Below are positions 587 through 48,829 of a stretch of DNA of 50,102 nucleotides, in pieces (position 1 is the first letter of the stretch; every line of letters begins with the position of its first letter). The notes beneath the pieces were generated by a model, which worked only from the letters and a program-made list of their open reading frames with translations, had not been told where the DNA came from and searched no databases. Where the stretch lies: contig CAYSFN010000002.1 of NCBI GenBank assembly GCA_964430045.1, positions 1 through 50,102 on the forward strand, in the 5' to 3' direction. The position numbers and the translations under genes were made by a program. The DNA comes from an uncultured Gemmatimonadaceae bacterium (GTDB taxonomy: Bacteria; Gemmatimonadota; Gemmatimonadetes; Gemmatimonadales; Gemmatimonadaceae).

Positions 587-967
587 GTGACGCTTGACCC
601 GTATCCTATGCAGGGGTACGAATGTGCTCCCAGCGCCGCAGGGGGCGAGGGATCACTGGAACGAGGATTGTGCGTGGCAGATCTGCCTGTGGGGCATTTC
701 ATCAGGGCGTATCGAAATGCCCGGAAGCTCTCCCAGCGGAGCCTCTCGATCGGCTCCGGCCTGAGCGCCAGCTACGTCGGCAAGGTGGAGTCCGGTGAGA
801 TCGATCCCTCGTTCCGAGCGTTCGCCATGCTGGCCCACCATCTCGGCTTCACCTCCCGCGAGATCGTGTTCCTGGTGAAGTATGAAGCAGCCCGTGGGTT
901 GGGTCTCCCAGTGCCGGCGGATGTCGCACCCTCGACCGATGATCAACAGGATGACCATGGCCACTAA
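587..967 (+). CDS. XRE-family helix-turn-helix transcriptional regulator
   Basis: HTH_3-like stretch FIRAYRNARKLSQRSLSIGSGLSASYVGKVESGEIDPS. The ORF opens at GTG 587, but GTG 674 (GAGGA 6 nt upstream) is the more likely start. Confidence 0.75.
   Translation: MTLDPYPMQGYECAPSAAGGEGSLERGLCVADLPVGHFIRAYRNARKLSQRSLSIGSGLSASYVGKVESGEIDPSFRAFAMLAHHLGFTSREIVFLVKYEAARGLGLPVPADVAPSTDDQQDDHGH
655..663 (+). promoter_or_regulatory. ACTGGAAC(A/G) motif copy (ACTGGAACG) in the leader of the XRE gene
   Basis: Read directly: gatcACTGGAACGaggattgtgcGTG. The same 8-mer recurs in other intergenic leaders. Confidence 0.45.
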
Positions 968-2303
968 TGACTCCGTCTCTCCGGCCCAGCCTCAGCCGGG
1001 CGTGCTGATGTTGCTCGGCAACGGCAGCATCGGACTCAGGGCGCGCCGGGCGTTGACTGTCTACGCTCTCGGCGTCGAGCTGTGGAAGCTGGGGAAGTGG
1101 GCGCACGGCAAGTGGGTCGCTGCGAACAGCTACTCGGTCACCGTCACCGGTGACGATGCCATCTTCGAGGACCTTCAGCTCTGGCTCCTCGAGCAGATCC
1201 CCGAGCGCGATCGTCGATCACTCTTCGCTCGCACCCAACGCATCAGCGGCGACGATTCCATCTCCCCATCCGACGGTCGTCCACTCCACCCGGGCCTGAA
1301 GTTCTTCTACGATGGCTCGGAGCGTCAGGCGGTCGTGCTGGGTGGTCACCGGGTGAACGTCCTCGTCGACGCCGAGGATGCGAAGCGGGGTCTGGGTCAA
1401 GGTGACGGTCGTTACGATCGCCACCTTGAGAAGCTCGTCTTCAGCGCTCACGGCATCGAGGGTCACGCCGCCATCATCGAGTTCATCAAGACCGTCACCG
1501 ACGAGCACTACGCCGTGGATCGGAACCCAGACCTGCTGATCAACCGGTGGGGCTCATGGGAGTCACGGCGAGACCTCGGCTCTCGCGGGCTCGACACCGT
1601 GTTCCTCGATGCCGGGCAGAAGGAACGGATCGTCGCCGACCTCGACACGTTCCTCGGCCAGGAGAAGGAGTATCGCGAGCTCGATATACCGTGGCATCGC
1701 GGGTACCTCTTCACGGGGCCACCGGGCACCGGGAAGTCCAGCCTGGCCAAGGCCCTGGCCAACCACTTCGGGCTCGATGTCTACTACCTCTCCCTGTCGA
1801 CGATGTACGACGACGCCGAGCTCAACAACATGATCGGCCGGCTGCCCCCGCGCTCAGTGCTGCTCATCGAGGACAGCGATGTCTACAGCGCCGCCAAAGA
1901 TCGCAGCGACGATGGCAAGGGCCCGACGCTCGCCGGCGTGCTCAACGTCCTTGATGGCCTGCTCACGCCTCATGGGCTGGTGGTCATCGGTACGTCGAAC
2001 GAGGTCGACTCACTCGACGAAGCGTTGAAGCGCAAGGGCCGCTTCGACCTGATCGAAGAGCTCGGCTACATGACGGCGACGTCGCTCGACGAGATGACCA
2101 CCCGGCTCGTCGGCCGCACGGTCCAGCTCGACAGCATCCGCGATGACCTTGTCCCTGTGAACGTGGTCGAGGCAATCAAGCAGCATCTCGGCGACCCGGA
2201 TGCAGCGATCAAGGCCATCGAGGCCCTGGCCCGGCCGGCGGTCGGTCGGGTCGTGACGTGCGGGAGCATCGCCCTCACTTATCAGAACGGAACCCCTTCA
2301 TGA
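951..2303 (+). CDS. BCS1-type AAA+ ATPase
   Basis: Walker A GPPGTGKS and Walker B LLIEDSD. The junction IPWHRGYLFTGPPGTGKSSLAKALA and the later LNVLDGL...GRFD match the Bcs1-like AAA layout. Hydrophobic N-terminus. ATG 951 chosen (the ORF opens at 882). Confidence 0.85.
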   Translation: MTMATNDSVSPAQPQPGVLMLLGNGSIGLRARRALTVYALGVELWKLGKWAHGKWVAANSYSVTVTGDDAIFEDLQLWLLEQIPERDRRSLFARTQRISGDDSISPSDGRPLHPGLKFFYDGSERQAVVLGGHRVNVLVDAEDAKRGLGQGDGRYDRHLEKLVFSAHGIEGHAAIIEFIKTVTDEHYAVDRNPDLLINRWGSWESRRDLGSRGLDTVFLDAGQKERIVADLDTFLGQEKEYRELDIPWHRGYLFTGPPGTGKSSLAKALANHFGLDVYYLSLSTMYDDAELNNMIGRLPPRSVLLIEDSDVYSAAKDRSDDGKGPTLAGVLNVLDGLLTPHGLVVIGTSNEVDSLDEALKRKGRFDLIEELGYMTATSLDEMTTRLVGRTVQLDSIRDDLVPVNVVEAIKQHLGDPDAAIKAIEALARPAVGRVVTCGSIALTYQNGTPS

Positions 2304-2668
2304 GCTCTCGCATCTCAGTCCACATCTCCAGTCTGCCGGTCGGCTGCACTCTCGACACCTACGAGGACGGCTCGGTCTGGTTGCGTCTACCGGGCGGTGA
2401 GGATGTCACCCTTCGGGGGTACGCCCAGCGTGTCGGTTCTGGTCCCGGGAGGGGTGACGGGACGACCATCGATCACGCAGCCACCATGGCGTGTGAGGAG
2501 TGTGGTGCGATGGTGTTGCCGTCGACCAACCGCGACTTCGCCTACGCCACCTACGGCAAGATCTTGTGCTTCGATGATACGCCGAGGCTCGAGCGTAAGC
2601 CCGACAACGGCGAGCGCCGGCGCAAGTCGGACGCGCTCACGACCGACCTGGGGTCGAGTACTCGGTGA
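2300..2668 (+). CDS. hypothetical protein with CxxC pair
   Basis: ATGA overlap with the AAA+ stop. 122 aa. Contains MACEECGAMV...ILCFDD. No recognisable family. Confidence 0.55.
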   Translation: MSSRISVHISSLPVGCTLDTYEDGSVWLRLPGGEDVTLRGYAQRVGSGPGRGDGTTIDHAATMACEECGAMVLPSTNRDFAYATYGKILCFDDTPRLERKPDNGERRRKSDALTTDLGSSTR

Positions 2669-3537
2669 TCTTCTCAGCGAGTCGCTTGGGGATGTGGATG
2701 GACTGCTCCCTGCAGGCCCATCTCCGTTACGACGTCCGCGAGGTCGAGCGAAAGTTCAGCGCGGCCGCGGTGTTCGGGACTGTGATCCATGCGGTCATGA
2801 ACTGGTACAACAACCATCCAGACCCGGGCGCCGACCTCACTCTGACGCAGGCACGCAACCTCTTCCTCAAGTGGTGGGGTGATCCTGGCCTCATCGGCGA
2901 GCAGATCGACTACTACCCGCAACGCACAAGTTGGAACACGTACCGCGACACCGGCCTCGCGGTCATCGAGAACGTCCACGACAAGAACCAGTTCGACAAG
3001 CGGGCGCTCATCGCCACGGAGGCCGATTTCCTGGTCCCGTTCGGCGAGCACAAGCTGACCGGGCGCATCGATCTGGTCGAAGTGCGCTGGAACGGCAAGG
3101 GCAACCCGCTGCTTAGAATCATCGACTACAAAGGGTCCAGCCGGCAGCCGACCAAAGCCGAGCTGGCCCTGAACGTGCAGATGACGACGTACGACTACGC
3201 GGTCGGGTGCCCCGAGTTCTGGATCGGCGACGGCACCGACGAGAACCCCGGCATTCTCAACGGCCAGGCGCTCATGGACCAGTACTTCGATCTGCCCCAT
3301 CGGGCGATCTGGTACCACCTGCGCGGGCCGAAGGAGATCGATGCCGGGCCCCGGGACGAGAAGGACTTCGGCCGCCTCTACCGGGTGGCCACCGAGATCG
3401 AGAAGGCGGATCGCCTGCAGGTGCACGTGCCGAAGATCGGCAAGGCCTGCGAGGAGTGCGACTTCCTCGAGCAATGCCCCATGGACATCCCCGTCGAGCT
3501 CGAAGTTCGACCCGACGACCCGAACGCCTGGGTCTAG
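2665..3537 (+). CDS. PD-(D/E)XK nuclease, Cas4/RecB-exonuclease-like
   Basis: GTGA overlap start. N-terminal Cys (MDCSLQAHL), core GRIDLVE...IIDYKGS, and C-terminal Cys triad CEECDFLEQC typical of Cas4-like Fe-S nucleases. Confidence 0.8.
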   Translation: MIFSASRLGMWMDCSLQAHLRYDVREVERKFSAAAVFGTVIHAVMNWYNNHPDPGADLTLTQARNLFLKWWGDPGLIGEQIDYYPQRTSWNTYRDTGLAVIENVHDKNQFDKRALIATEADFLVPFGEHKLTGRIDLVEVRWNGKGNPLLRIIDYKGSSRQPTKAELALNVQMTTYDYAVGCPEFWIGDGTDENPGILNGQALMDQYFDLPHRAIWYHLRGPKEIDAGPRDEKDFGRLYRVATEIEKADRLQVHVPKIGKACEECDFLEQCPMDIPVELEVRPDDPNAWV

Positions 3538-5095: not shown

Positions 5096-5097
5096 GT

Positions 5098-5116
5098 CCG
5101 CGGCTAATACCCGCGG
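5098..5116 (+). terminator. short GC hairpin after the Sak4-like gene
   Basis: CCGCGG-ctaatac-CCGCGG begins 3 nt after the stop at 5095. Only a 6-bp stem and no U tract. Confidence 0.3.
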
Positions 5117-5248
5117 CCAGACAGGTCGATTCTCTGGTTGCGGTCCAGGGGGTCGGCCTGGCCGGCGAGAGCCGGCTGATCCATTCACACCGCAAGGTCT
5201 GCGCCGGACTGCGGCGGGGCCACGCACACCAGACGAGAAGAGGACCCG

Positions 5249-5764
5249 ATGGGACTGACGTTCAAGAAGGAAGAAGCCAGGGAGCGGGGAGATCTCATCG
5301 AGGACGGCACCGTTCTCGATGCCCTCGTGAAGGATGTGAAGAAGAAGCACATCAAGCCGAGGGGTGGCGGCGAGGAGTTCGACAAGGCCGAGTGGAAGTT
5401 CGAGGTCGTGGCTGCGCAGGGCGACGAGCTCGACGGGCGTCCCTTCTGGGGCAACACCGGTGTCGAGTTCGTCGAGGCCGAGGGCTGCAAGCTCACCAAC
5501 TGGACCGAGGCCGTGCTGGCTCGGATCCTGCCCATCGAGTACGAGGTCGACATGGACGACGTGCTCGATAAGCCGTGCCGGATCGAGATCGGTGTGCGTG
5601 AGTACACCAAGACGGTCGACGGCGTCGAGGTGGAGAACCAGGTCAACTACGTGCGTGACGTCTTCCCGACCAAGTCCAAGATGGCGGAGATGGCGGCCCA
5701 GCGCGATGAGGCGGCCCGCGCGTCGGCGCGCGCTGCGGTGCAGGCCGACGAGGAGCCCTTCTGA
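5249..5764 (+). CDS. SSB-like single-strand DNA-binding protein (DUF669-like position)
   Basis: 171 aa. Sits between the Sak4-like ATPase and the primase-helicase, as in Sak4 modules. The acidic C-terminal tip ADEEPF resembles the bacterial SSB tail (actinobacterial DDEPPF). Confidence 0.55.
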   Translation: MGLTFKKEEARERGDLIEDGTVLDALVKDVKKKHIKPRGGGEEFDKAEWKFEVVAAQGDELDGRPFWGNTGVEFVEAEGCKLTNWTEAVLARILPIEYEVDMDDVLDKPCRIEIGVREYTKTVDGVEVENQVNYVRDVFPTKSKMAEMAAQRDEAARASARAAVQADEEPF

Positions 5765-5774: not shown

Positions 5775-5818
5775 GAGATAGGCCGCACCCTTGTCGGCGC
5801 GAGGGTGCGGCCTATCTC
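5775..5818 (+). terminator. strong stem-loop terminator candidate
   Basis: Perfect 17-bp inverted repeat GAGATAGGCCGCACCCT / AGGGTGCGGCCTATCTC with a 10-nt loop, 11 nt after the SSB-like stop. Confidence 0.7.
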
Positions 5819-5864: not shown

Positions 5865-8357
5865 ATGCCAGATACTGACGTGCTGGGTTACCTCTCGTCG
5901 AAGGGGCTGAACCTCCAGAAGGCCGGCGGCTGGGAGTACCGGACACACTGCCCGGTCTGTCACGAGCAGCCGCAGAAGGGCAAGCGGGGTCGCTTCTACA
6001 TCAACGTGAACCCTGGCGCTGACGTGCCGGGGTTGCACCACTGCTTCCTCTGCGACACCAAGGGCAACCTCACCACGCTCAAGCGCTTCTTCGGCGACCC
6101 GACCTCAGAGTCGGATGAGGAGTCCTACGAGCAGTTCGAGATCTTCAAGTTGGCGGCACGCTTCTACGAGCGTCAGCTCTGTGGCTCGAAGGACCTGCCA
6201 CCGAACGAGGAGATCCTCGCGTACCTCCGGGGCCCGAACCGGATGCTCGAGGACTCGACGATCCGCAAGTTCCATCTGGGGTACGCCCCGATGGAGATCG
6301 TAAAGCCGATGGATAGCGAGGCCCGTGAGGTGCCGAGCCGGAGGCTCTACACCTACCTGAAGGAGATGGGCTGCGAGGTCAAGGCCCTGCTCGACTCAGG
6401 CCTGGTGGTGAAGCGCGGCGACCGCGTCGTGGACTCGCTCAGCGGCATGGTGGTGATCCCGTACATGGTCGCCGGCAACGTGGTCGATCTACGTGGCCGG
6501 TCATGGCCGGAACGAGAGGGCTCGCCCAAGTACAAGACGTGCTCGGGCCGCGACAGCCGGTTGTTCAACACCGACGCCATCTGGAACACCGAAGAGGTCA
6601 TCGCCACGGAAGGAGAACTTGACTGCTTGGTCATGGACCAACTAGGATACCGGGCGGTTGGCTTTCCTGGTGCTAAGTCGTTCCAGGATAACTGGTCTGG
6701 GTACTTCGCTCCACTCAAGCGCGTGTGGCTCGTCTTCGATCGCGACGTCGCTGGCACGGCGGGCATGGAGAAGATGCGCGAGGCCATAGGCCCGAAGGCT
6801 CGGCCGATCCATCTTTCCGAGAAGGGGACGAAGGTCGATCCGACGGCCTGGGTGGCGCAGGGCAATGGTGCCAAGGAGTTCGACGAGCTCCTGTCCGAGG
6901 CTCGGCGCGGCAACCTGCTCGTGAGTGTGCGCGATGCCATCGCCGAGTTCGGTGAGGTCCAGGGGCAGCCCGGCCTGAAGTTCGGCTGGGAGATGCTCGA
7001 CATGATGATCGACCCAGGCCTCCTGGCCGGTCAGCTCATGATCCCGCTGGCCAAGACGGGCTGTCTCGCCGGCGACACGGAGCTCGTCCTCGGCCGGCAG
7101 GGTGTGGGTTTCAAGATGAAACTCAGTGACGCCTACGAGAGCTGGAGCGGCCAGCGGGGGCACTGGGACCGATCGATCCCGACGAACATCCAGCGCGCCG
7201 TCGATGGCGTCGTGCGGCTCGGTGAGGTCGACGAGATCTGGGACTCGGGCGTGAAGCCGGTCTACGAGCTCCGCACGACGACTGGGCGGGCCATCACAGG
7301 GACAGCCAAGCATCCGTTCCTCACGCCCGATGGGTGGCGCAAGTTGGGCGAGCTCGAGGCGGGGGGCGGGGTCTGCGTCAACGCCGGCCTCGACAGCGCC
7401 GGGTGGATGGGCCTCGAGCAGGTGGGCGTCGAGGAGATCGAGTCGATCACGTTCCTCGGCGAGCAGCAGACCTACGACATCTCCATGAAGGACGAGCCCC
7501 ACAACTTCATGGCCAACGGGTTCGTGGTGCATAACACCGGCAAGACCCTCCTCCTGCTCAACATCATGGACATGATGCGGCGCGTTCCAGGTCAGGAGGA
7601 TCTGAAGTTCCTGTTCTTCAGCCTGGAACAGACCCGGGGTGAGTGGTGGGACAGGGCTCGGCGGATCTACCGGTTCCACAACCCGATGGCCGAAGACGAC
7701 GATGCCGAGCGGTGGTGGCAGGACAACCTCTTCATCGTCGACCGCAACCGACTGACCCAGGCGGATCTACGGTTGGCCGTCGAGGACTTCGCCTATCAGG
7801 TGGGGCAGCTCCCCGACCTGATCCTGGTCGACTACCTCGGGTACTGGGCCCGGTCGTACAAGGGCGAGCGATACGAGGCGGTGTCGAACGCGGTCATGGA
7901 CATGAAGGGAATCCTCAAGGACCTTCGTTGCCCGGGGATCGTCCCGCATCAGGTGAGTCGCATCGGCAAGGACGGCGAGGAGTTCGCGAGTGATGCCGCT
8001 CGCGATTCCGGCGTCATCGAGGAGACCGCCGACTTCGGGCTCAACCTCTGGTCCCCCGACAACCGCCTCGGCCTGCAGGAGCAAGAGAAGACCGGCAAGC
8101 TGCTGTGCCGCATCGGCAAGAGCCGTCACGGCGGACGGGGCGCGCTCATCGAGCTGCAGTTCGCTCCGCTCTCGCTGGCCATGGTCCCGAGTGGCGTGGG
8201 CAACGAGCTCGCGGCTCGGGCTCGACGCGAGTTCTTCTGGCGACAGGCTGGCGAGAACTGGGAGTCCGCCGTGCAGCGCCACCGCACCGGCCAGCATCAC
8301 GGAGCCCTCGAACCCTCTACCCGTAATGGATTCGACCAAAGGTCCTTCGACGACTGA
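5865..8357 (+). CDS. bifunctional primase-helicase (T7 gp4-like), intein-containing
   Basis: Zinc finger CPVCHEQ...HHCFLCDTKGN. TOPRIM motifs EGELDCLV and FDRDVAG. DnaB-like helicase motifs LILVDYLGY and PHQVSR. Walker A is interrupted by the intein. Confidence 0.9.
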   Translation: MPDTDVLGYLSSKGLNLQKAGGWEYRTHCPVCHEQPQKGKRGRFYINVNPGADVPGLHHCFLCDTKGNLTTLKRFFGDPTSESDEESYEQFEIFKLAARFYERQLCGSKDLPPNEEILAYLRGPNRMLEDSTIRKFHLGYAPMEIVKPMDSEAREVPSRRLYTYLKEMGCEVKALLDSGLVVKRGDRVVDSLSGMVVIPYMVAGNVVDLRGRSWPEREGSPKYKTCSGRDSRLFNTDAIWNTEEVIATEGELDCLVMDQLGYRAVGFPGAKSFQDNWSGYFAPLKRVWLVFDRDVAGTAGMEKMREAIGPKARPIHLSEKGTKVDPTAWVAQGNGAKEFDELLSEARRGNLLVSVRDAIAEFGEVQGQPGLKFGWEMLDMMIDPGLLAGQLMIPLAKTGCLAGDTELVLGRQGVGFKMKLSDAYESWSGQRGHWDRSIPTNIQRAVDGVVRLGEVDEIWDSGVKPVYELRTTTGRAITGTAKHPFLTPDGWRKLGELEAGGGVCVNAGLDSAGWMGLEQVGVEEIESITFLGEQQTYDISMKDEPHNFMANGFVVHNTGKTLLLLNIMDMMRRVPGQEDLKFLFFSLEQTRGEWWDRARRIYRFHNPMAEDDDAERWWQDNLFIVDRNRLTQADLRLAVEDFAYQVGQLPDLILVDYLGYWARSYKGERYEAVSNAVMDMKGILKDLRCPGIVPHQVSRIGKDGEEFASDAARDSGVIEETADFGLNLWSPDNRLGLQEQEKTGKLLCRIGKSRHGGRGALIELQFAPLSLAMVPSGVGNELAARARREFFWRQAGENWESAVQRHRTGQHHGALEPSTRNGFDQRSFDD
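7062..7535 (+). mobile_element. mini-intein (158 aa) in the helicase P-loop
   Basis: Begins CLAGDTELVL (block A). Has TGTAKHPFLT (block B, TxxH). Ends FVVHN, followed by +1 Thr at 7536. Excision restores Walker A AKTG-TGKT. No endonuclease domain fits in 158 aa. Confidence 0.85.
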
Positions 8358-8370
8358 GCAAGGAGCCCAC

Positions 8371-8670
8371 ATGGCAGATGAACTGACGGCCATCATCAAG
8401 GTCAACATCTCGGCGCAGCCGGGTGTCGGACTGTTCGCCGACTGCGCCACCTTGGCGGAGTGTGCGATGGTTCAGAACTCGCTCCTGGCGAGCGGGAGCC
8501 TGGATCTCCACGAGCTTCTCGAGGCGGGAGTTCCGCAGGCCTTCGTCTCCCCGAACTACCCGACGCCGGCGCCGAGGCCGGAGAACCAGCCGTCGCTGGA
8601 CTGGGGGCTCGTCCCTGACGAGGTCGCGTCCTTCGACTGGGGCCCCATCATCGAGCCCTTCTGCCGATGA
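8371..8670 (+). CDS. hypothetical protein
   Basis: ATG 8371 after AAGGAG. 99 aa. GC3-rich frame. Stop overlaps the next start (ATGA). Confidence 0.55.
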   Translation: MADELTAIIKVNISAQPGVGLFADCATLAECAMVQNSLLASGSLDLHELLEAGVPQAFVSPNYPTPAPRPENQPSLDWGLVPDEVASFDWGPIIEPFCR

Positions 8671-9362
8671 GCGCGATCCTTTCCGCTCACAACTGGAACA
8701 CGAACGCCGACCTCATCCTCGACGCGGTCGAGTTGAAGTACCTCCGGCTGCGCTGGCACACGCTGGACCCGACGTACGGCGGCGGGAAGTGGTGGACGAA
8801 GTGGCGACCGCGCTCGTTGGTCACTCACGACCTCGAGCTCGACGGCGTCGACTTCCGTCGCCTCCCTGAGGGTGACGAGACCTTCGATGCGATCACCTTC
8901 GATCCGCCCTACGTGTGCACTGGCGGCCGTGACACCAGCACCATCACCGACTTCAACAAGCGGTACGGGTTGAAGGGTGCACCCCGCACGCCGAAACTCC
9001 TCCAGCAGATGATCAACGAGGGCCTGGAGGACTGTGTCCGGGTGCTCAAGCGACGTCAGCGCGGGCAGAGCAACGGCATCCTGCTCGTGAAGTGCTGCGA
9101 CTACGTCAGCTCGGGCAACAAGTGGAACGGGACCTACTTGACGGAGAAGCATGCCGTCGAGGAGCTCGACCTGGTTCGCATCGATCGCTTCGAGCACTAC
9201 ACCACGGCGCCACGGGCACAGCCCCAGGGGCGCACCAGGAAGTGCTCACGGTGTAAGGGCAGCGCCACCGGCTGCGAGGCGTGCATCGATGGGCGTGTGC
9301 CCTCCGAGCAGGAGCACGCCGCCTGCAACAGTTCGACTTTGTTCGTATTCGTCAAGAAGTAG
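8667..9362 (+). CDS. DNA methyltransferase (N6-adenine or N4-cytosine type)
   Basis: AdoMet motif LDPTYGGG followed by catalytic FDPPY. C-terminal Cys cluster CSRCKGSATGCEAC. Confidence 0.8.
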   Translation: MSAILSAHNWNTNADLILDAVELKYLRLRWHTLDPTYGGGKWWTKWRPRSLVTHDLELDGVDFRRLPEGDETFDAITFDPPYVCTGGRDTSTITDFNKRYGLKGAPRTPKLLQQMINEGLEDCVRVLKRRQRGQSNGILLVKCCDYVSSGNKWNGTYLTEKHAVEELDLVRIDRFEHYTTAPRAQPQGRTRKCSRCKGSATGCEACIDGRVPSEQEHAACNSSTLFVFVKK

Positions 9363-9371
9363 GAGGAACCG

Positions 9372-9851
9372 ATGGCTAAGGTGCGGATGGCTACCCGGAC
9401 GGCACCGGGCACCTGGCTCACCACGTGGACGCCGGAGCTGGTGGCGGGCGCCGAGGACAAGCCGGCGGCGTTCGCCGCCTACTGCCAGCAGACCATGGGT
9501 GTCCCGTGGGCGACGTACAAGGACATGGCGATCTTGCGCAAGCGGATCAAGGAGCTCTTCGAGTACTACCCGCGGGCGGACTACTTCACGCTGTGCCGAG
9601 TGGCCGCCTGGTGCAAGTCGAAGCGGAGGCGCCTCTCGCGGGTGTACCAGGTCGTGGACAGGTTCCGCGACGCCTACGAAGCCGGCGCCCTGCCCGAGCT
9701 CGATCGAGACAGGCTCGATGACGTCATCGAGCAGGGCATCGTCGAGGCCCTGGAGGTCGAGCAGCGCCCGGAGTGGCGCACGCGGCTCATCCGATCGGTC
9801 GGTCCCGAGGCCCGGAAGGCGGCCCTCGCCGAGTGGCAGCAGAGCCGATAG
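9372..9851 (+). CDS. hypothetical protein
   Basis: ATG 9372 after GGAGGAA. 159 aa. No recognisable domain. Confidence 0.6.
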   Translation: MAKVRMATRTAPGTWLTTWTPELVAGAEDKPAAFAAYCQQTMGVPWATYKDMAILRKRIKELFEYYPRADYFTLCRVAAWCKSKRRRLSRVYQVVDRFRDAYEAGALPELDRDRLDDVIEQGIVEALEVEQRPEWRTRLIRSVGPEARKAALAEWQQSR

Positions 9852-9868
9852 GACGCCTCTTTCTCGTT

Positions 9869-9898
9869 CGTTCCAGTCCGGCTAAGGTCTGTTCCAAT
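9869..9898 (-). promoter_or_regulatory. two ACTGGAAC-type motif copies (CGTTCCAGT and TGTTCCAAT as read on the plus strand)
   Basis: Read directly in the gap after the 9851 stop. The copies are 21 nt apart. TAAGGT lies between them. Confidence 0.4.
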
Positions 9899-9928
9899 TG
9901 TGAGCACGCCCTGGCTGGACCGAACGGC

Positions 9929-10042
9929 GTGTTCTGTCTCCTCTACCAGGAGGAGGAGCTCAACGAGACGATCGCCGAGGAGTGCGAGGGCTACACACCC
10001 TGCGCCTGGGCCCAACTGAAGGGTGTCGCGGATGTCGGATGA
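9929..10042 (+). CDS. possible small Cys-containing protein, start unresolved
   Basis: The frame of ORF 9773..10042 is GC3-rich from about 9887 (VCSNCEHALAGPNGVFCLLYQEEE...). No ATG/GTG/TTG lies between 9852 and GTG 9929. Confidence 0.25.
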   Translation: MFCLLYQEEELNETIAEECEGYTPCAWAQLKGVADVG

Positions 10043-10883
10043 TGTGATGAGGGCCGAGGCCGTCGAGCGCGAGCGGCCGATCATCCATGAGGTGATCGAC
10101 GATGAGCTCGAGATCGAGTACTACAAGGCCAAGACCATGGCCGGTTCGGGGTTCATCGTCGATCCCGACTTCGCTCAGCGCTATCTGAAGATGGGCAAGC
10201 TGCCGGTCTTCCTGATGGCGTTCCGGGTGAAGGACTGGACGCCGAAGGTCAACCCGAACGGCGAGGGCTACAAGGAGGTCCGTCTCGAGGCGTGGGAGGT
10301 CCGCGAGCTCGATGGCGAGGTCCGCCGGGAGGCGATGGCCTACTTCGCCGCCACGTCGCCTGAAGTGGCGCATGAGGGTGACACGGCGACGTTGGCCTTG
10401 CCGATGAGCGCCGAAGGCCACAAGCTCCAGCAAGCCGGCCTGCAGCAGGAGCTGCTGGAGCAGTACCTCGGTCAGCGTTGGGGCTTCGTGCCGAACGACG
10501 ACGAGACGCCCGTCGAGGCTGCCATGCGCCTTCTCGAGGAGCTCAAGGACATCAACGATTCGGCGCCGCCGGCGCTCGACGTGGTGCGCGACGTCTCGGA
10601 CGAGGAGTGGGAGTTCGAGGAGGCGAAGCGCTCCGGCCTCCATGGCGAGCTGTCCCCGAAGACCCAGGCGCTCGTGGATGGCATCCTGGAGGGCCTCGAG
10701 GACATCGATCCGGCCGCGGCTGATGTGCTCGCCGAGCTCGAGGACGACGACGAGGACGACGAGCCGGCGGTGGTGCGCGACGCTGGCCCGTCGTTCGAGG
10801 ACCCGGGTGTGGCGCCTCGGGCTGACCGCAGCTCGGGCCCGATCTTCGACGAGCCCTCCGACGAGCCGGCGGCGGCGCGCTGA
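10032..10883 (+). CDS. hypothetical protein with acidic C-terminal region
   Basis: ATG 10032 (the ORF opens at GTG 10023). About 283 aa. DDDEDDE tract near the C-terminus. Confidence 0.6.
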   Translation: MSDDVMRAEAVERERPIIHEVIDDELEIEYYKAKTMAGSGFIVDPDFAQRYLKMGKLPVFLMAFRVKDWTPKVNPNGEGYKEVRLEAWEVRELDGEVRREAMAYFAATSPEVAHEGDTATLALPMSAEGHKLQQAGLQQELLEQYLGQRWGFVPNDDETPVEAAMRLLEELKDINDSAPPALDVVRDVSDEEWEFEEAKRSGLHGELSPKTQALVDGILEGLEDIDPAAADVLAELEDDDEDDEPAVVRDAGPSFEDPGVAPRADRSSGPIFDEPSDEPAAAR

Positions 10884-11551
10884 TGGAACCCGTCATCGAG
10901 TTCGTCGCTGAGGGCTACGACTCCCTCTACGCCTGCGGTCAGTGCCGGATGATCGTGGTCAACCGTCTGGTCCCCATCTCGGACGGGGCGGAGCCCGGCG
11001 ATCGCGAGCTGGCCATCCTGTGCTGCTGGTGCACCCGTTGCCTCGCCGCTCCCCGGAAGGGGCATCGGTCGGTCTGCGAGGACTGCGAGAAGCTGCAGCG
11101 CCAGGAGACCAACGCTGCTCGTCACGCCAAGCTCCTCGCGATGCCGTTCGCTGAGCCGGCCGGCTACGAGATGTTCTTCGCCGACGAGATCAACCGCTTC
11201 GGCGAGGATCTCGACACCCTGGCCGACTACATCCTCTTCGACGTCGAGGACGGCGGCGGCACCTACGCCGACATCGACTGGTCGGATCAGGTCGTTCATC
11301 CCTGCTCGAAGCGACAGGTCGGCACGCCGGATGTACTCGAGCATCTCGACGAGGCGTGGAGTAGCGAGTTCACCGACGACTCCGGCCCATACCTCCCCTC
11401 CGAGGCAGCGCGCCAGCAGGCCAAGCTCCTTCAGGCGTTGCTCGAGAAGGACGCCCCGATCATCTACGAGCCGATCACGACGCTTCGCATCGACATGGCG
11501 GCCAGCCAGGCTGGTCGTCCAGGGAACAAGGGGTCGGCCACCGCCGGCTAA
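10883..11551 (+). CDS. hypothetical Cys-rich protein
   Basis: TGATG junction with the upstream gene. N-terminal CGQC...CCWCTRC...CEDC cluster suggests zinc binding. Confidence 0.6.
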   Translation: MEPVIEFVAEGYDSLYACGQCRMIVVNRLVPISDGAEPGDRELAILCCWCTRCLAAPRKGHRSVCEDCEKLQRQETNAARHAKLLAMPFAEPAGYEMFFADEINRFGEDLDTLADYILFDVEDGGGTYADIDWSDQVVHPCSKRQVGTPDVLEHLDEAWSSEFTDDSGPYLPSEAARQQAKLLQALLEKDAPIIYEPITTLRIDMAASQAGRPGNKGSATAG

Positions 11552-11566
11552 CGGGCGCTTCGGCGC

Positions 11567-13300
11567 ATGCAAGGGAAGAGGATCACGATGGGCAAGGGCG
11601 TACTGGACATCTCGTCCACGCTGAAGCTGCCACTGGACTATGTCACGCAGACGGGTGCCATCTTGGCCCGGCGCGGCGCCGGCAAGACCTACACCGCGCT
11701 GAAGCTGGCGGAGGAGTTCGCCGAGAACGGACTGCCGTTCGTCGCCATCGATCCCACCGGGGTGATGTGGGGCCTGCGGTCCTCAGCCACCGGCGGGAGT
11801 GGCGGCTGGCCCATCGTGATCCTCGGCGGCGAGCACGGCGACATCCCGCTCGACTCGACGTCGGGCAAGGTCATCGCCGAGTTCGTTGTGGACTCCGGCA
11901 TGTCGGTGATCCTCGACCTCTCGCTCTTCGAGTCGAAGGCGCAGTCGAACCGCTTCCTCTACGACTTCGCCGACCGGCTGTTCCGCTACAAGGCGAAGCA
12001 CCGCGAGCCGCTCCACCTCCTACTCGACGAGGCCGACCAGTTCTGTCCGCAGCAGCCGAAGCCGGACGACATGAAGATGCTCGGGGCGTGGGAGTCGATC
12101 GTCCGCCTCGGCCGCAGCCGCGGCCTGGGCATGACCATGATCACCCAGCGCGCCGCCGTGCTGAACAAGAACGTGCTCACTCAGATCGAGGTGCTCTTCG
12201 CCTTCCAGAACACCAGCCCGCAGGACCGCAAGGCCATCCTCGACTGGGTCAACGCCACGGCGTCGAAGGAGGAGGCGAAGGAGATGCTCGACAGCCTCGC
12301 CTCGCTCCAGCCCGGCGAGGGCTGGGTGTGGTCGCCGGGCTGGCTCCGGGTGCTCGTGCGGGTACAGATCTCGAAGCGCAAGACGTTCGACTCCTCCCGC
12401 ACGCCCGAGGCCGGCGAGGTGCTCCAGCCCAAGCAGGTGGCGCCGGTCGACCTCGAGGCGCTGGCCGAGCGCATGCAGTCGACCATCGAGCGGGCCCTGG
12501 CCACCGACCCATCGATCCTCCAGGCCCGCGTGCGCGAGCTCGAGCGCGAGCTCAAGGCCATGGCCAACCAGCCGGCCGAGGTGCGGGTGGAGACTCGGGT
12601 GGTCCGCGTTGAGGTTCCGCCGGCCGGCATCGAGAAGCGGTTGCTCGATCTCAGTCAGAACCTCGCGATGTTCGAGGACGAGCTCCAGGGCGTGTACGAG
12701 GATCTCCGGTGTGCTCGAATCGAGGAGGAGGCCAAGGCCGAGGTGGCCGAGATCCAGGGTTCACCGCCGCCGGACTGGGCGGCGAAGAAGGTCCAGCGGC
12801 GCTCGGTGCCCGTGGCGGCCCCCGCCGGCGACGTGAAGCTGGGCAAGGCTGAGCGCATGATCCTCGCCGTTCTCTGGGATCACGGCCACCTGACCAAGGG
12901 TCAGCTCGGGATCCGCACGGGCTACCAGGCGAAGGGCGGCGGCTTCGGCAACGCCCTCAGCGCGCTGCGTACCGCCGGGTACGTCGAGGGATCGGGCGAT
13001 ATCGCGATCACCGACGCCGGCATGGCTGCCGCTCAGGCGATGGATCTGCCGTACATGCCCTCCGACCTCTTCGACTTCTGGAAGAACAAGGCGCACGGGA
13101 AGGCCGAGAAGCTCATCCTCGAGGAGCTGCGCCGAGCGGGCGACTGGGTCACCCGAGAGGACCTGGCGGCGGCCACCGGGTACGAAGCCAAGGGCGGCGG
13201 CTTCGGCAACGCCCTCAGCAAGGTCAAGACCATGGACCTGGTCGAGAAGGACGCTGGCTCCTTCCGCCTGGCCACCGACTTCCGAGAGGCCATCTCCTGA
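11567..13300 (+). CDS. HerA/FtsK-superfamily (DUF87-like) ATPase with tandem C-terminal winged-helix repeats
   Basis: Walker A RRGAGKTY, Walker B LLLDEADQF, then GRSRGLGMTMITQR. Alternative start ATG 11588 after GGGAAGAGGA. Two approx 86-aa repeats each contain GY(Q/E)AKGGGFGNALS. Confidence 0.75.
   Translation: MQGKRITMGKGVLDISSTLKLPLDYVTQTGAILARRGAGKTYTALKLAEEFAENGLPFVAIDPTGVMWGLRSSATGGSGGWPIVILGGEHGDIPLDSTSGKVIAEFVVDSGMSVILDLSLFESKAQSNRFLYDFADRLFRYKAKHREPLHLLLDEADQFCPQQPKPDDMKMLGAWESIVRLGRSRGLGMTMITQRAAVLNKNVLTQIEVLFAFQNTSPQDRKAILDWVNATASKEEAKEMLDSLASLQPGEGWVWSPGWLRVLVRVQISKRKTFDSSRTPEAGEVLQPKQVAPVDLEALAERMQSTIERALATDPSILQARVRELERELKAMANQPAEVRVETRVVRVEVPPAGIEKRLLDLSQNLAMFEDELQGVYEDLRCARIEEEAKAEVAEIQGSPPPDWAAKKVQRRSVPVAAPAGDVKLGKAERMILAVLWDHGHLTKGQLGIRTGYQAKGGGFGNALSALRTAGYVEGSGDIAITDAGMAAAQAMDLPYMPSDLFDFWKNKAHGKAEKLILEELRRAGDWVTREDLAAATGYEAKGGGFGNALSKVKTMDLVEKDAGSFRLATDFREAIS
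12932..12961 (+). repeat. 30-nt perfect direct repeat, copy 1
   Basis: aagggcggcggcttcggcaacgccctcagc. An identical copy lies 258 nt downstream, in frame. Confidence 0.85.
13190..13219 (+). repeat. 30-nt perfect direct repeat, copy 2
   Basis: Identical to 12932-12961. Encodes KGGGFGNALS in the second winged-helix repeat. Confidence 0.85.
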
Positions 13301-13530: not shown

Positions 13531-13712
13531 CCCGGATCCGCTACCGAGCCCTGTGGACGCAACGGGGCGCCGTCATCCTGGTCGACCACGATGGGCGCTT
13601 CGTCGTCAGGCGGTTCAGGTTGCGCGACCGAGCGGCCATTCGGGGAAAGGTGCGGCCGCCGAAGAACGACGTTCCCTCAGACCCGATTCGACGTTGGCCG
13701 CGGAGGCGATGA
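13527..13712 (+). CDS. hypothetical small basic protein
   Basis: ATGA overlaps at both ends. 61 aa. Confidence 0.45.
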   Translation: MTRIRYRALWTQRGAVILVDHDGRFVVRRFRLRDRAAIRGKVRPPKNDVPSDPIRRWPRRR

Positions 13713-14086
13713 TGGCAAGACGAGCGAAGAAGTTGACCAAGGCCGAGAAGGAGGAGGCCGATACCACTCGCCGGGTGGCCTTCAAGGGCGGCCCCTACGA
13801 TGGCCTCCGGATGACAGTCGGCAAGAACCTCATGCGGGAGTACATGCGTCTCGGCTTCCCCGAGTGGGCGACCTACCGGTGGGACGGGGACGAGACCCTC
13901 TACGTCTACTTCGGGCCCGACCCAGCTCCGGCAGGCGCCGGCACGGTGCGCAAGCCAGTCGAGGGTCAGGCCGCCGTGAGGGGGGTCGTGGTCGATCCGG
14001 CCGACATCGATCTGTCGCATCGCGAGACCGCGGCCTGGAAGCGCGGTCGTCTCTTGGCCGGGCAGACCATGGCGGATGAAGGATGA
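13709..14086 (+). CDS. hypothetical protein
   Basis: Internal ATG 13709 of ORF 13388..14086, in an ATGA overlap. 125 aa. Confidence 0.55.
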   Translation: MMARRAKKLTKAEKEEADTTRRVAFKGGPYDGLRMTVGKNLMREYMRLGFPEWATYRWDGDETLYVYFGPDPAPAGAGTVRKPVEGQAAVRGVVVDPADIDLSHRETAAWKRGRLLAGQTMADEG

Positions 14087-15066: not shown

Positions 15067-15280
15067 GGCCCGGCCGCAGCGGCGCATCGTGCTCGATGTC
15101 AACGCGTCGATCCACGACGACCTTGAGCGCCTGGCTGAGCGTGATGGGGTCACGGCCGGGTCCGTGGTTCGCGAGGCGGTGGCCAAGCACCTGCGCTCGA
15201 ACCGTGACTACCTCGGGGAGGGCATGGGCGACGTCGGGGCCGAGCTCGGCGGGTTCGCCGGGCACTCGGGCCAGTTCTGA
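15059..15280 (+). CDS. ribbon-helix-helix (CopG/Arc-like) protein
   Basis: Internal ATG 15059. N-terminal RRIVLDVNASIHDDLERLAERDGVTAGSVVREAVAKHL fits a beta strand followed by two helices. 73 aa. Confidence 0.65.
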   Translation: MGRARPQRRIVLDVNASIHDDLERLAERDGVTAGSVVREAVAKHLRSNRDYLGEGMGDVGAELGGFAGHSGQF

Positions 15281-18704: not shown

Positions 18705-18706
18705 GG

Positions 18707-19579: not shown

Positions 19580-19596
19580 GGGTCTCCTCAGGGAAA

Positions 19597-19615
19597 TGGA
19601 ACGCCGTGTTCCAGT
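19597..19615 (-). promoter_or_regulatory. inverted pair TGGAAC-N5-GTTCCA containing an exact ACTGGAACA copy
   Basis: aTGGAACgccgtGTTCCAgt lies in the 44-nt gap upstream of the Thr/Ser-rich gene. The TGTTCCAGT copy (19607-19615) starts 28 nt from the start codon. Confidence 0.5.
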
Positions 19616-19908: not shown

Positions 19909-21096
19909 TCATCGCGGTGCGTCGACGCGGTAGTCGGCAGTGCGCTCGCCATGAGCGGGATTGCCCTTGAGATGCATCGGCCTGTAGTAGATCCCCGTGA
20001 GTTTTCCGAAGAGCAGTCCCTTGACGGGGTGGCTGCCTGGACAACAATCCCCATAATGAGCGATGCTGCCCGGGTGGATGTGGAAAGCGTCGGTGCCCTG
20101 ACCGGAGCCCGGTCCGGATCGGATTCGGGTGGCCGTGCCGGTGGGCTGGATCTTGATGAGGTGGTAGCCGACGAGCGGGTTGGTTGCCTTGCGCTTCTTG
20201 CGGTGCTTCCTCTGCTCGCCCGGTGAGGGTTCGCGGTACTCGGTCTGCACGTTGCGGCAGTTCAAGAACGACAGGGCCATGCCCCACACGTTCAGGGCTC
20301 GAGCGAAGTCGGTGACCAGGCTCTCGCCGTCGGCGCCGTCGACCTCGAACAAGAACTGGAACATCATGTCCAGCGGTTTGCCGTGCGGGTCGAGCGCGAC
20401 CTTCCAGCTCATGAACGGACCGACGGCCTCCTTGCCCCGGCCAACGAAGAGCTGCAGCGTCCAGACCCATCGGACGTCCTCCCAGCCGTTCATGTCGAGC
20501 GAGTCCGAAGTCCAGAGCCCGTTCTCGTAGCGGACCAGGCCGTTGCCGTCGACTTCGCCCATGGTGAGATCGCTCTCTGCCTGGTAGACGATCTCGCCGG
20601 CCGGCCGGAACTTGTTGTCGACCGAACCGTGACCCACGCCGCCGGCCGCCTCGGCGATGGCGAGCACGCCGATCTGCTGGCCGTTGCGCTGGTTCCATTC
20701 GGTCCAGTACATCGGCCACTTCGGAGCGAGGCAGGGCATGTCGAGAAGCTGGGTCCGGTCGTCGGTGGTGCGCTGGTGTACGTAGACGTTGTTGGCCAGC
20801 ACGATGGGGTAGGACTTGAACATCTCACCGAGCGACCGTTGGTACTTCCGGTGGGCTTCGAGGGTCCGGTTCGCGGCGTTGCGCTCGAGCTCGTCGACCT
20901 CGTTCAACATCTGGACCACCTTGTCCTCGTTGCCTGGGATCGACATGACCCGGTCAAGGTCCGCCTCGGTGGCCTCCTCGGTGAGGCCGAGCTCGGCCAG
21001 GTGGCGGGTCTTCATGGCTTCGACGTGGTCCTGCTCCGAACGGAGCGGGCCGCGCGGCTTGTAGGCGCCGGTGAGGATAAGGTCAGCAAGTCTCAT
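19909..21096 (-). CDS. hypothetical 395-aa protein
   Basis: Internal ATG 21096 after GGAGGAG. Overlaps the HNH gene end by 14 nt. Basic patch RKHRKKRK. No recognisable domain. Confidence 0.65.
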   Translation of the reverse strand: MRLADLILTGAYKPRGPLRSEQDHVEAMKTRHLAELGLTEEATEADLDRVMSIPGNEDKVVQMLNEVDELERNAANRTLEAHRKYQRSLGEMFKSYPIVLANNVYVHQRTTDDRTQLLDMPCLAPKWPMYWTEWNQRNGQQIGVLAIAEAAGGVGHGSVDNKFRPAGEIVYQAESDLTMGEVDGNGLVRYENGLWTSDSLDMNGWEDVRWVWTLQLFVGRGKEAVGPFMSWKVALDPHGKPLDMMFQFLFEVDGADGESLVTDFARALNVWGMALSFLNCRNVQTEYREPSPGEQRKHRKKRKATNPLVGYHLIKIQPTGTATRIRSGPGSGQGTDAFHIHPGSIAHYGDCCPGSHPVKGLLFGKLTGIYYRPMHLKGNPAHGERTADYRVDAPR

Positions 21097-25860: not shown

Positions 25861-25869
25861 TGTTCCAGT
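25861..25869 (-). promoter_or_regulatory. exact ACTGGAACA motif copy upstream of the RuvB-like gene
   Basis: TGTTCCAGT on the plus strand, starting 28 nt from start codon 25833. TAGACT (a TAnnnT-type hexamer) overlaps it on the coding strand. Confidence 0.5.
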
Positions 25870-28066: not shown

Positions 28067-28356
28067 GAGACCTCCTCGGTGATCGTGTCGGTGATGATGT
28101 CGTGCCAGGACCAGCCCCCGCGTGGACCCTGTCGTCGAACCTCGATGTCGTAGGTGCCGAGGGACAGAACCCTCGAGCCACCGTTGCTCTTCTGCGTGAG
28201 CTCGACCGTGCTGCCGTCCTTCGAGCGGAGGCGGCCCGAGGTCCAGCCGCCCTTCGGGCCCTTGTCGATCCGACGAAACCGAGCGTTCCAGTAGTCGACG
28301 TCATGGCTGGGCGGATCCTTGGCCCTGGGCCTGGCTGCCTTGGTCCGGGTGGCCAT
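28063..28356 (-). CDS. hypothetical basic protein
   Basis: ATG 28356. 97 aa. Basic N-terminus TRTKAARPRAK. Confidence 0.55.
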   Translation of the reverse strand: MATRTKAARPRAKDPPSHDVDYWNARFRRIDKGPKGGWTSGRLRSKDGSTVELTQKSNGGSRVLSLGTYDIEVRRQGPRGGWSWHDIITDTITEEVS

Positions 28357-31348: not shown

Positions 31349-31378
31349 ATCGTACGGAACTGGAACAGCTTAGGTCAA
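31349..31378 (-). promoter_or_regulatory. candidate promoter TTGACC-N18-TACGAT with an ACTGGAACA copy (inverted orientation) in the spacer
   Basis: The coding-strand reading is TTGACCtaagcTGTTCCAGTtccgTACGAT, about 30 nt upstream of the MoxR start codon at 31317. Confidence 0.35.
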
Positions 31379-36113: not shown

Positions 36114-36128
36114 TGTTCCAGTTTCCAG
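36114..36128 (-). promoter_or_regulatory. exact ACTGGAACA copy plus an adjacent CTGGAA half-site, in the Ku leader
   Basis: The coding strand reads CCTGGAAACTGGAACAgaaacGGAGGAcgccATG. The motif ends 16 nt from the start codon. Confidence 0.5.
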
Positions 36129-36138: not shown

Positions 36139-36167
36139 ACGGTACCGAAGAGGTGTGACACCGTCAA
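36139..36167 (-). promoter_or_regulatory. candidate promoter TTGACG-N17-TACCGT for the Ku-ligase operon
   Basis: Coding-strand hexamers at 36167-36162 and 36144-36139. Direct repeat GGTGTGAC x2 in and around the spacer. Confidence 0.35.
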
Positions 36168-48425: not shown

Positions 48426-48607
48426 CGCGCCCACCCGATCGGGTTGACCCAGTCGCCGGCGGATTCGTTCACCGCTCCGCTCTTGATGAGGCTGTCGATC
48501 AGCTCGTTCCAGGCTTCACGAATGGCCGGCTTGTCCCGACTGGCGATGACCGCGGCGCAGGTGTCGCGGAAGTCCCGCTCGACGTCCGACTTCTTGACGG
48601 TGGCCAT
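48422..48607 (-). CDS. hypothetical protein
   Basis: ATG 48607 after AAAGGAGG. 61 aa. Confidence 0.5.
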   Translation of the reverse strand: MATVKKSDVERDFRDTCAAVIASRDKPAIREAWNELIDSLIKSGAVNESAGDWVNPIGWAR

Positions 48608-48646
48608 GGCGGCCTCCTTTGGGGTGGGGAGAGATCTGGGGTTCGT

Positions 48647-48829
48647 TCATGCTACCGCGGGTTCATGGGCCTGTTCCAGTGCGAGGCCGGCTGTCTGGAT
48701 GGCGCGCAGGACTTGTTCAGGGTGGATCGTGTCGGCGCACTCGGTCGCCGTCCTGCCCTCACTCCGACAGTCGGTGCACGCCATGGCCTCGAACGTGCAG
48801 GCCAACGTGTCATCGGTGAACTTGGGCAT
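48647..48829 (-). CDS. hypothetical 60-aa Cys-containing protein
   Basis: Internal ATG 48829 after GGGAGGA. CTFEAMACTDC...EC. Confidence 0.45.
   Translation of the reverse strand: MPKFTDDTLACTFEAMACTDCRSEGRTATECADTIHPEQVLRAIQTAGLALEQAHEPAVA
48672..48680 (-). promoter_or_regulatory. exact ACTGGAACA copy near the 3' end of the 60-aa gene
   Basis: TGTTCCAGT on the plus strand, starting 65 nt from the start codon at 48607. Lies inside codons L-E-Q. Confidence 0.35.

Follow-up and report, generated by a model that had tools for sequence, protein, structure and literature searches.

A conserved asymmetric 9-bp motif at predicted sigma-A-type promoters of an uncultured soil phage clade: a probable operator

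A short motif, ACTGGAAC(A/G), is over-represented in contig CAYSFN010000002.1 (positions 1 to 50,102; this whole stretch of 50,102 nt is referred to as the window). It is largely restricted to intergenic gaps, is conserved together with its orientation at orthologous sites of related phage sequences and overlaps statistically supported promoters. With a probability of roughly 60%, the motif is a DNA-level regulator site (operator) at sigma-A-type promoters. A protein would bind it, most likely as a repressor, and an XRE-family protein encoded in the window is a candidate binder. Nine related loci, recovered through homologs of MoxR, AAA ATPase and XRE, were compared; relatives are denoted by L numbers (L004, L005 and so on).

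Abundance and position of the motif

Ten exact copies of ACTGGAAC(A/G) were found in the window, against 0.61 expected from dinucleotide shuffles, 0.66 from a third-order Markov model and 0.94 from codon shuffling within genes. None of the simulations under these three null models (0 of 100, 0 of 200 and 0 of 300) reached ten copies. Non-coding sequence makes up 4.2% of the window and contains six of the ten (binomial P = 1e-6). When k-mers were screened without bias, ACTGGAAC was the most gap-enriched 8-mer of the window (6 of 11 occurrences in gaps, p = 5e-6), and it was again at the top when five genomes were pooled (13 of 20 in gaps, p = 1e-12). Gap copies in the window number seven, including a degenerate one at 9890. 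All copies are listed below; forward and reversed refer to the orientation relative to the downstream gene.

655..663, + strand: XRE copy, forward ACTGGAACG; abuts the ribosome-binding site (RBS) GAGGA, 10 nt before GTG 674 and 32 nt past the -10.
9869..9877, - strand: ACTGGAACG, reversed, in the gap 9852-10031; the transcribed + strand reads GTTCCAGT; 5 nt upstream of the -10-like hexamer TAAGGT.
9890..9898, - strand: degenerate ATTGGAACA, reversed; 21 nt from the 9869 copy and 1 nt after TAAGGT.
19595..19603, + strand: degenerate AATGGAACG, inverted partner of the 19607 copy, with which it makes TGGAAC-N5-GTTCCA at 19597-19613; the sole inverted pair.
19607..19615, - strand: copy of the Thr/Ser-rich gene, forward ACTGGAACA, 27 nt before ATG 19579; overlaps the 3' end of the -10-like hexamer CATACT in a putative TGGACG-N17-CATACT (19613-19641).
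25861..25869, - strand: copy of the RuvB-like gene, forward ACTGGAACA, 27 nt before ATG 25833; covers the last 3 nt of the -10 in TAGACT-N18-TAGACT (25867-25896).
31359..31367, + strand: MoxR copy, ACTGGAACA, reversed, within the MoxR promoter spacer; the coding (-) strand reads TGTTCCAGT; an extra GGAAC (31356-31360) overlaps it, giving the half-site pair GGAACTGGAAC at 31356-31366.
36114..36122, - strand: Ku copy, forward ACTGGAACA, 15 nt before ATG 36098 and 20 nt past the -10; a degenerate tandem CTGGAAAC (36121-36128) lies directly upstream, and CTGGAAACTGGAAC spans 36115-36128.
48672..48680, - strand: uncertain copy, ACTGGAACA, 64 nt before the 48607 start, in the last codons (Ala-Leu-Glu-Gln) of a weakly scoring 60-aa open reading frame (ORF).
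8692..8700, + strand: coding copy, codons Asn-Trp-Asn-Thr; judged outside the system.
28284..28292, - strand: coding copy, codons Tyr-Trp-Asn; judged outside the system.
20355..20363, + strand: antisense copy inside gene 19909-21096; judged to be there by chance.

The copies at 8692 and 28284 were set outside the system because they are explained by codons and retained only where the peptide is retained. L171, which has an identical protein, retains the 8692 copy, and L224 has lost it along with the peptide, reading His-Ala-Trp-Ala-Ser instead; Tyr-Trp-Asn-Ala-Arg-Phe is kept in the L004 ortholog of the gene with the 28284 copy.

An earlier note on this DNA, made from the letters alone, had located ACTGGAACA at 19607, 25861, 31359, 36114 and 48672, ACTGGAACG at 655 and 9869 and the degenerate ATTGGAACA at 9890. 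All of these positions were correct, as were those of the inverted pair, GGAACTGGAAC and CTGGAAACTGGAAC; three further copies, all coding (8692 +, 20355 + and 28284 -), had been overlooked. Its placing of the copies in non-coding gaps held in substance: the 655 copy lay inside the XRE ORF as then called (587-967) and became non-coding after revision of the start. The 48672 copy is located as described, near the end of a 60-aa gene, of which the ORF is weakly supported. For the four forward copies (XRE, Thr/Ser, RuvB, Ku), distances to the start codon were 10, 27, 27 and 15 nt, close to the 11-28 nt proposed. The third-order Markov and codon-shuffled backgrounds suggested in the same note gave the expectations above. 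It had also named equal density in coding sequence and absence from orthologous gaps of relatives as findings that would speak against the motif; the first is contradicted by the gap share of the exact copies, the second by retention at the XRE, 9869, RuvB, MoxR and Ku gaps.

A profile built from 24 sites of divergent lineages carries information at nine positions only, (A/G)(C/G)TGGAAC(A/G), and the element is therefore an asymmetric, self-contained 9-mer. The 25 nt on either side of it hold no information in this profile, and no partner half-site at a fixed distance was found there. Where copies are paired, the geometry is inconsistent (direct spacings of 6, 7, 21 and 33 nt and one N5 inverted pair). 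TGGAAC-N5-GTTCCA could form a 6-bp RNA hairpin; its fold was not better than that of shuffles (z = -1.2).

Predicted sigma-A-type promoters at the motif sites

Promoters were searched on both strands with a strict pattern (TTGAnn or a 5-of-6 match, N16-19, TAnnnT). Eleven were found in 30 kb of gap sequence and two in 392 kb of coding sequence, a difference of about 70-fold, and those in gaps invariably face the downstream gene. In motif-bearing genomes, seven of the eight strict promoters carry the motif, either in the spacer or 9-20 nt past the -10. The following promoters were predicted in the window.

594..623, + strand: promoter of XRE and the rightward early operon, TTGACC-N17-TACGAA(T); -35 and -10 kept in L171, L172 and L224.
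31349..31378, - strand: promoter of the MoxR-vWA operon, TTGACC-N18-TACGAT; predicted by the strict pattern and by an independent consensus scan.
36139..36167, - strand: promoter of the Ku-ligase-GP88 operon, TTGACG-N17-TACCGT; kept in L004, L005, L006 and L008.

Orthologs of the MoxR promoter read TTGAAC/TTGAGC-N17-TACCAT. In the window, L004, L005, L006 and L167 alike, the spacer of this promoter contains the reversed core GTTCCA, 5-6 nt away from either hexamer. At Ku the forward copy follows the -10 by 20 nt in the window and L004 and by 9 nt in L005. At RuvB and the Thr/Ser-rich gene the motif covers the last three bases of a -10-like hexamer. The distant phage L225, with 57% G+C, has a reversed motif inside the spacer of TTGACA-N17-TAGTAA (TTGACA-ttcGTTCCAG-...-TAGTAA). 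The position of the motif relative to the -10 thus varies (-3, 0, +9, +20, +32, or in the spacer). A fixed overlap with the -10 ('nAnnCT' followed by GGAACA) was considered and rejected; it fits RuvB and the Thr/Ser gene and fails at Ku, XRE, L005 and L006.

Of 11 independent loci, about 9 have the 'ACT' end of the motif turned towards the -10, the motif being reversed if upstream and forward if downstream; 9890 with its L171 ortholog 18754 and L005 17819 do not conform. The evidence for this polarity is weak (binomial ~0.03), and the -10 hexamers were partly assigned by eye. If real, it would suggest a polar contact with RNA polymerase.

A second promoter element, GTCACA(C/G)-N8-TAnnnT, was observed five times in gaps and not once in 469 kb of coding sequence (both strands). 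Its sites are 36139-36159 (-) in the window, 6096-6116 and 14024-14044 in L004, 7004-7024 in L005 and 9950-9970 in L168. The promoter of the Ku-ligase operon carries it as GTCACAC-N8-TACCGT. In geometry and TGTCA core it is like tTGTCRgtg-8nt-TAnnnT, the PafBC-activated promoter of the RecA-independent DNA-damage response in mycobacteria (PMC5656591). Since the element sits on the promoter of the Ku-ligase operon, the end-joining genes might, by analogy, be damage-inducible.

Conservation at orthologous gaps

The decisive evidence comes from comparison. Protein identity among the motif-sharing phages is only 43-80%, and the gap sequence flanking the motif has diverged. The motif was also found upstream of Ku in L004 and L005, upstream of the RuvB block in L004, L005 and L006, and upstream of MoxR in L004, L005, L006 and L167, there reversed in every one. 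When the gaps of the RuvB block were aligned (window, L004, L005, L006), the nine motif columns were the only invariant block besides the RBS and the start codon. Upstream of XRE the motif occurs in L171 (TACTGGAACG), L172 (ACTGGAATA) and L224 (ACTGGATCG), with one mismatch each in the latter two; -35, -10 and motif form separate conserved islands in this gap, in which spacer and leader have diverged. The L171 ortholog of the gap 9852-10031 holds both reversed copies (18733 and 18754) at the same 21-nt spacing, with a perfect ACTGGAACA at 18754. One forward copy, 1 nt after TAGTAT, is present in the L224 ortholog of this gap.

Orientation is kept at the XRE, RuvB, MoxR and Ku gaps and, in L171, at the 9869 gap. 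With further reversed loci at L171 3496, L225 8441 and L172 6683, about half of the independent conserved loci are reversed relative to the downstream gene. Coverage of the relatives extended to the gaps named above and ended short of the 19607 (Thr/Ser) and 48672 regions. L168 and L169, two more distant lineages, showed no motif in the compared region. In L168, (GACCA)n runs, gaccagaccagaccag, occur just upstream of several RBSs (~3060-3085, 7490-7520 and 18280-18305) and may be a different, lineage-specific leader or operator element.

The XRE protein as candidate binder

The XRE-family helix-turn-helix (HTH) gene encodes 97 aa at 674..967 on the + strand. Its start was revised from 587 to GTG 674 because of the conserved promoter at 594-623 and because the L171 ortholog is called at the equivalent start; the 655 copy is therefore non-coding and lies in the leader. 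The protein matched Pfam HTH_31/HTH_3 and the PHROG transcription regulators. An AlphaFold2 model (pLDDT 84.5) showed a five-helix lambda-repressor-like domain, the closest structures being C.AhdI, P22 c2, ClgR, Stl, DdrO and SinR. Fourteen orthologs, 45-78% identical, occupy the same syntenic slot and have an invariant recognition helix, S-x-S-Y-V-x-K-x-E. The gene is the first of the rightward early operon. Its own leader contains the motif in four lineages (window, L171, L172 and L224).

Among the ~70 window proteins scanned, XRE was the sole recognisable DNA-binding protein; the scan revealed neither a sigma factor nor an RNA polymerase, nor a second HTH protein. Of the three regulators put forward in the earlier note, XRE is thus retained as a recognisable DNA-binding protein, and the ribbon-helix-helix (15059-15280) and winged-helix (16513-17007) proteins are dropped, having no Pfam or informative PHROG match. 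XRE is the leading candidate because of the copy in its own leader, its position in the early operon, the invariant recognition helix and the shared syntenic slot; that it is the binder of the motif is possible, though on this circumstantial evidence still doubtful.

In L225 the XRE ortholog lies beside genes for a histidine kinase, two response-regulator-domain proteins and WhiB-like proteins (7397-9841 and 10298-10585). The promoter of this histidine kinase gene is the TTGACA-N17-TAGTAA that holds the reversed motif.

Proposed function and alternative explanations

A trans-acting regulator would recognise the 9-bp asymmetric site at promoters of the host RNA polymerase in early and middle operons. 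The units under its control would be the XRE-led rightward replication operon, the operon after 9851, the Thr/Ser-rich gene, the RuvB-like block, MoxR-vWA and Ku-ligase. Placed on the spacer, on the -10/start site or on the first 10-30 transcribed bases, the protein would keep RNA polymerase from binding or from leaving the promoter. Repression would be the likeliest outcome, as Cro-like negative feedback or temporal shut-off, and binding of XRE to the copy in its own leader would give autoregulation. An operator is preferred to an RNA signal or a directional promoter because both orientations are conserved, and to a core promoter element because the position relative to the -10 is variable. 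The earlier note had suggested an operator for a dimeric regulator: the operator part is favoured by the orthologous gaps, the two orientations, the sigma-A promoters and the copy in front of XRE itself, and the dimeric part was given up, as no partner half-site was found. Its alternative, a phage-specific promoter or leader element, is disfavoured by the reversed half of the conserved copies, by the lack of a phage RNA polymerase or sigma factor among the window proteins scanned and by the lack of a conserved RNA structure.

Several points weigh against an operator bound by XRE. The structural relatives of XRE all bind dyad-symmetric operators as dimers, whereas the motif sites are lone asymmetric 9-mers. 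L225 has an XRE ortholog with no motif copy upstream of it. The co-occurrence of XRE and motif comes without a negative control, such as a genome lacking XRE or the XRE region of the motif-less L168 and L169. Beyond the window lie ~3 kb of contig and the remainder of the genome, where another regulator may be encoded. The forward copies, at 10-27 nt from start codons, leave room for an RNA-level role there, and all evidence comes from sequence, namely that of soil DNA metagenomes.

Such an RNA-level role would be that of a leader element, in which forward copies in the mRNA, just ahead of the Shine-Dalgarno sequence, are bound by a regulator of translation or an RNA-processing enzyme; Cluster K start-associated sequences and the targets of T4 RegA and RegB are analogous elements. 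It would agree with the placing of forward copies 10-27 nt before starts and directly upstream of a separate RBS, which they adjoin in many lineages, and with a spacing to the start codon that varies somewhat less than that to the -10. We consider it unlikely, as about half of the independent conserved loci are reversed and absent from the sense transcript. The motif is complementary to neither the Shine-Dalgarno nor the anti-Shine-Dalgarno sequence; searches of Rfam and for tRNAs gave no match, and neither conserved structure nor covariation of the motif was seen (z-scores of folding between -1.6 and +0.9). A compositional or codon artefact, or chance, would account for three of the ten exact copies (Asn-Trp-Asn, Tyr-Trp-Asn and the antisense copy); as an explanation of the whole set it is excluded, given that 0 of 600 simulations reached the count, that the gap P is 1e-6 and that the motif is conserved across lineages at orthologous gaps.

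GGAAC is the canonical -35 core of extracytoplasmic function (ECF) sigma factors. A short conserved box containing it just upstream of gene starts, which overlaps a -10-like hexamer at RuvB and the Thr/Ser gene, could be a directional promoter element for a phage sigma factor, RNA polymerase or sigma appropriator, either a single box as in middle or late promoters of the T4 late type (TATAAATA) or an ECF -35. This is distinctly unlikely: conserved reversed copies would give antisense transcription, the RBS and start 10-27 nt downstream leave no room for an ECF spacer and -10, the placement relative to the sigma-A -10 differs between sites by more than 30 nt, and the window proteins scanned included no sigma factor or RNA polymerase gene product. 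The ECF -35 assignment itself was rejected after inspection of the profile and a visual check, which revealed no CGT/GTT box 16-17 nt away and no conserved box at +16-18. A site for a host factor, for instance a KstR-like TetR-family repressor of Actinobacteria that ties early phage expression to host physiology, would easily explain a constant sequence across phages with 43-55% identical proteins, the binder being conserved in the host. The 9-mer is a perfect KstR left half-site, scoring 14-15 bits where the median of 47 published sites is 13.2. However, the right half-site scores about -19, no different from background (mean -19.9); across seven loci full sites score 11.2 at best, less than the weakest published KstR site (17.8); and KstR binds a 14-bp palindrome as a dimer (PMC1995591). 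A KstR operator was rejected on the failure of the second half-site with the position weight matrix of the 47 published sites, by which no full site was present in the seven loci, and a host-factor site is accordingly a rather improbable reading; the half-site likeness may be coincidence or reflect a similar reading of DNA by HTH proteins.

Two other known boxes were rejected. The LexA (Cheo/SOS) box of Gram-positives and Actinobacteria is a GAAC-N4-GTTC palindrome; the motif forms one inverted pair only, with N5 spacing, and its other copies are partnerless. DnaA boxes or iterons do not fit copies that are dispersed at promoters rather than clustered, and the motif differs from TTGTCCACA by an insertion. 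A variant of the operator would be a polar, RNA-polymerase-directed element, at which RNA polymerase is contacted, on either side of the -10, by a monomeric protein of the phage or by a TetR-type factor co-opted from the host. We regard it as very unlikely; were it true, the whole early programme of the clade could be coupled to a host signal, lipid or steroid catabolism for example.

The operator remains the preferred reading. The motif is a well-supported but ordinary sort of phage gene-control element and calls for no new kind of mechanism. If correctly interpreted, it would supply a ready regulon map, with the co-regulated operons, the sites of host-type promoters and the likely master regulator, for a clade of large soil phages that has no cultured member and hardly any annotatable genes. 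The promoter and operator pairs (TTGACN-N17/18-TAnnnT with the 9-bp site) could be used as compact regulated parts in high-GC bacteria.

The window, its phage and relatives

The window has 66% G+C. Its genes are on the + strand from 1 to ~15,280 and on the - strand from 15,407 to the window end; they are tightly packed, with 4-5% non-coding sequence. The following products were recognised; most remaining ORFs lack a family assignment.

XRE HTH protein; BCS1-like AAA ATPase; PD-(D/E)XK nuclease.
AAA_24/Sak4-like protein; primase-DnaB helicase with intein; HerA-like ATPase.
UDG-superfamily protein; HNH endonuclease; RuvB-like ATPase; DUF6744.
MoxR ATPase followed by a vWA-like protein; GP88; ATP-dependent ligase; Ku.

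Because tail-type genes lie immediately upstream of XRE in the 80% relative, the window is taken as the non-structural part of a large uncultured phage, whose genome size (>100 kb) was judged from L171. The host is probably an actinobacterium, as judged from the G+C content, the GP88 and Rv2632c-like domains, the WhiB genes in a relative and the matches of the AAA ATPase to phages of Rhodococcus, Microbacterium and Arthrobacter.

No near DNA match or close protein match was present among 50,697 phage records (INPHARED), and cultured relatives were found neither by DNA nor by the Ku, MoxR, XRE or AAA_24 proteins. The best match in IMG/VR was no closer than 42%, and no prophage copy was detected in 185,579 GTDB species genomes (isolates and metagenome-assembled genomes). 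By these searches of INPHARED, IMG/VR and the GTDB species genomes, the clade is one with no cultured or annotated representative; its relatives are metagenomic contigs only, chiefly from soil. RNA runs containing the sequence were sought for transcript mapping and none was found; it occurs in four soil or unspecified DNA metagenome runs only.

Inteins shift their place within the clade. Within the window, it is the primase-DnaB helicase that contains one (5865-8357, + strand; Pfam Intein_splicing). L006 has one in MoxR (666 aa; 10001-12001) and probably also in RuvB (641 aa; 18588-20513), and the L224 primase (13547-17296) has two, with LAGLIDADG/HNH domains. ORF 17004-17585 (- strand) matched a PHROG cysteine dioxygenase (E = 1.6e-34), an unusual phage function, and had no Pfam match. 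Gene calls are ambiguous at 18456-19579 (- strand), where the Thr/Ser-rich ORF 18707-19579 (ATG, RBS GAGGAGA) overlaps ORF 18456-19160, which is in another frame and has the better codon-usage score; alternatively, there may be a frameshift.

A conserved and apparently structured leader lies at 5096-5248 (+ strand), after the AAA_24 gene and before gene 5249-5764. One hairpin in it has the loop GCT(A/G)AT(A/T) and stem compensations between lineages; a second hairpin is GC-rich, and GCCGATC is conserved. With four lineages, RNAalifold gave 20 pairs, 4 of them with compensatory changes, and there was no Rfam match. A perfect hairpin with a 17-bp stem (GAGATAGGCCGCACCCT...AGGGTGCGGCCTATCTC) at 5775-5818 (+ strand), between gene 5249-5764 and the primase-helicase gene, is likely a terminator. 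Its place in L171 is taken by an unrelated GC hairpin followed by GTTCCACC.

Comparison with known systems

Cro and C-protein regulators (lambda/P22 Cro, c2; C.AhdI) are like the XRE protein in fold and in being encoded in an early operon, with a site in their own leader and an overlap with sigma-70/sigma-A promoters. As with Cro-type operators, the motif sites overlap or abut predicted promoters (in the spacer, over the -10 or 9-32 nt downstream), and one lies at the gene of the candidate regulator itself (655-663; likewise in L171, L172 and L224, absent in L225). Cro-type operators are dyad-symmetric sites for dimers, clustered at one or two control regions, whereas single asymmetric 9-mers are spread here over at least six promoters.

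The operator of KstR (Rv3574), TnnAACnnGTTnnA, is a palindrome of 14-18 bp that is bound by a TetR dimer and overlaps -10 regions to repress (PMC1995591). Its half-site in the site table of Kendall et al. 2007 is ACT(A/G)GAAC(A/G) (PMC1995591). The phage 9-mer is identical to frequent published left half-sites such as ACTGGAACGTGTTTCAGT; its sites lack the second half and hence the 14-bp palindrome.

The start-associated sequences (SAS, GGGATAGGAGCCC) of Cluster K are asymmetric, are kept across subclusters and lie just upstream of gene starts (PMC3203893). They resemble the forward copies described here, but they include the Shine-Dalgarno sequence, lie at the start codon and have near-single orientation, whereas the motif has a separate RBS, lies 10-27 nt away and is of mixed orientation.

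Phages of Cluster O (Corndog etc.) have a 17-bp repeat, TGTTCGG-N3-CCGAACA, in more than 30 dispersed copies, of which many are intergenic and about one third are coding, with a stoperator-like distribution (PMC4351075). These phages also have predicted SigA-like promoters, a long leftward arm and a Ku-like gene (PMC4351075). The half-site CCGAACA shares GAACA with TGGAACA. The Cluster O repeat is a perfect dyad (7-bp inverted repeat with a 3-bp gap), which the motif is not, and Cluster O has no sequence or protein kinship with this clade, which went unmatched in the INPHARED collection.

Like the stoperators of Cluster A, the motif is a short asymmetric multi-copy site at promoters and in short gaps and is kept among related phages. 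Stoperators are 13 bp long and of the GGTGGMTGTCAAG type, and the motif is 9 bp with both orientations conserved. Cluster A operators and stoperators (L5 gp71, TipsytheTRex repressor) serve one monomeric phage regulator with transcription by the host RNA polymerase; stoperators are strictly co-oriented with transcription and lose their function if reversed (PMC9283540). The Cluster A repressor is a two-domain monomer of ~183 aa, in contrast to the 97-aa single-domain XRE candidate. No two-domain repressor (HTH and stoperator domain) of ~180 aa was found among the ~70 window proteins, most of the genome lying outside the window, and no integrase or lysogeny module was seen in the window.

The motif thus lacks at least one defining feature of each of the Cluster A, O and K repeats and is a member of none of them. 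If correctly interpreted, it would add a fourth dispersed regulatory repeat of actinobacteriophages to stoperators, SAS and Cluster O repeats, and by analogy it would work like the operator set of a global phage regulator.

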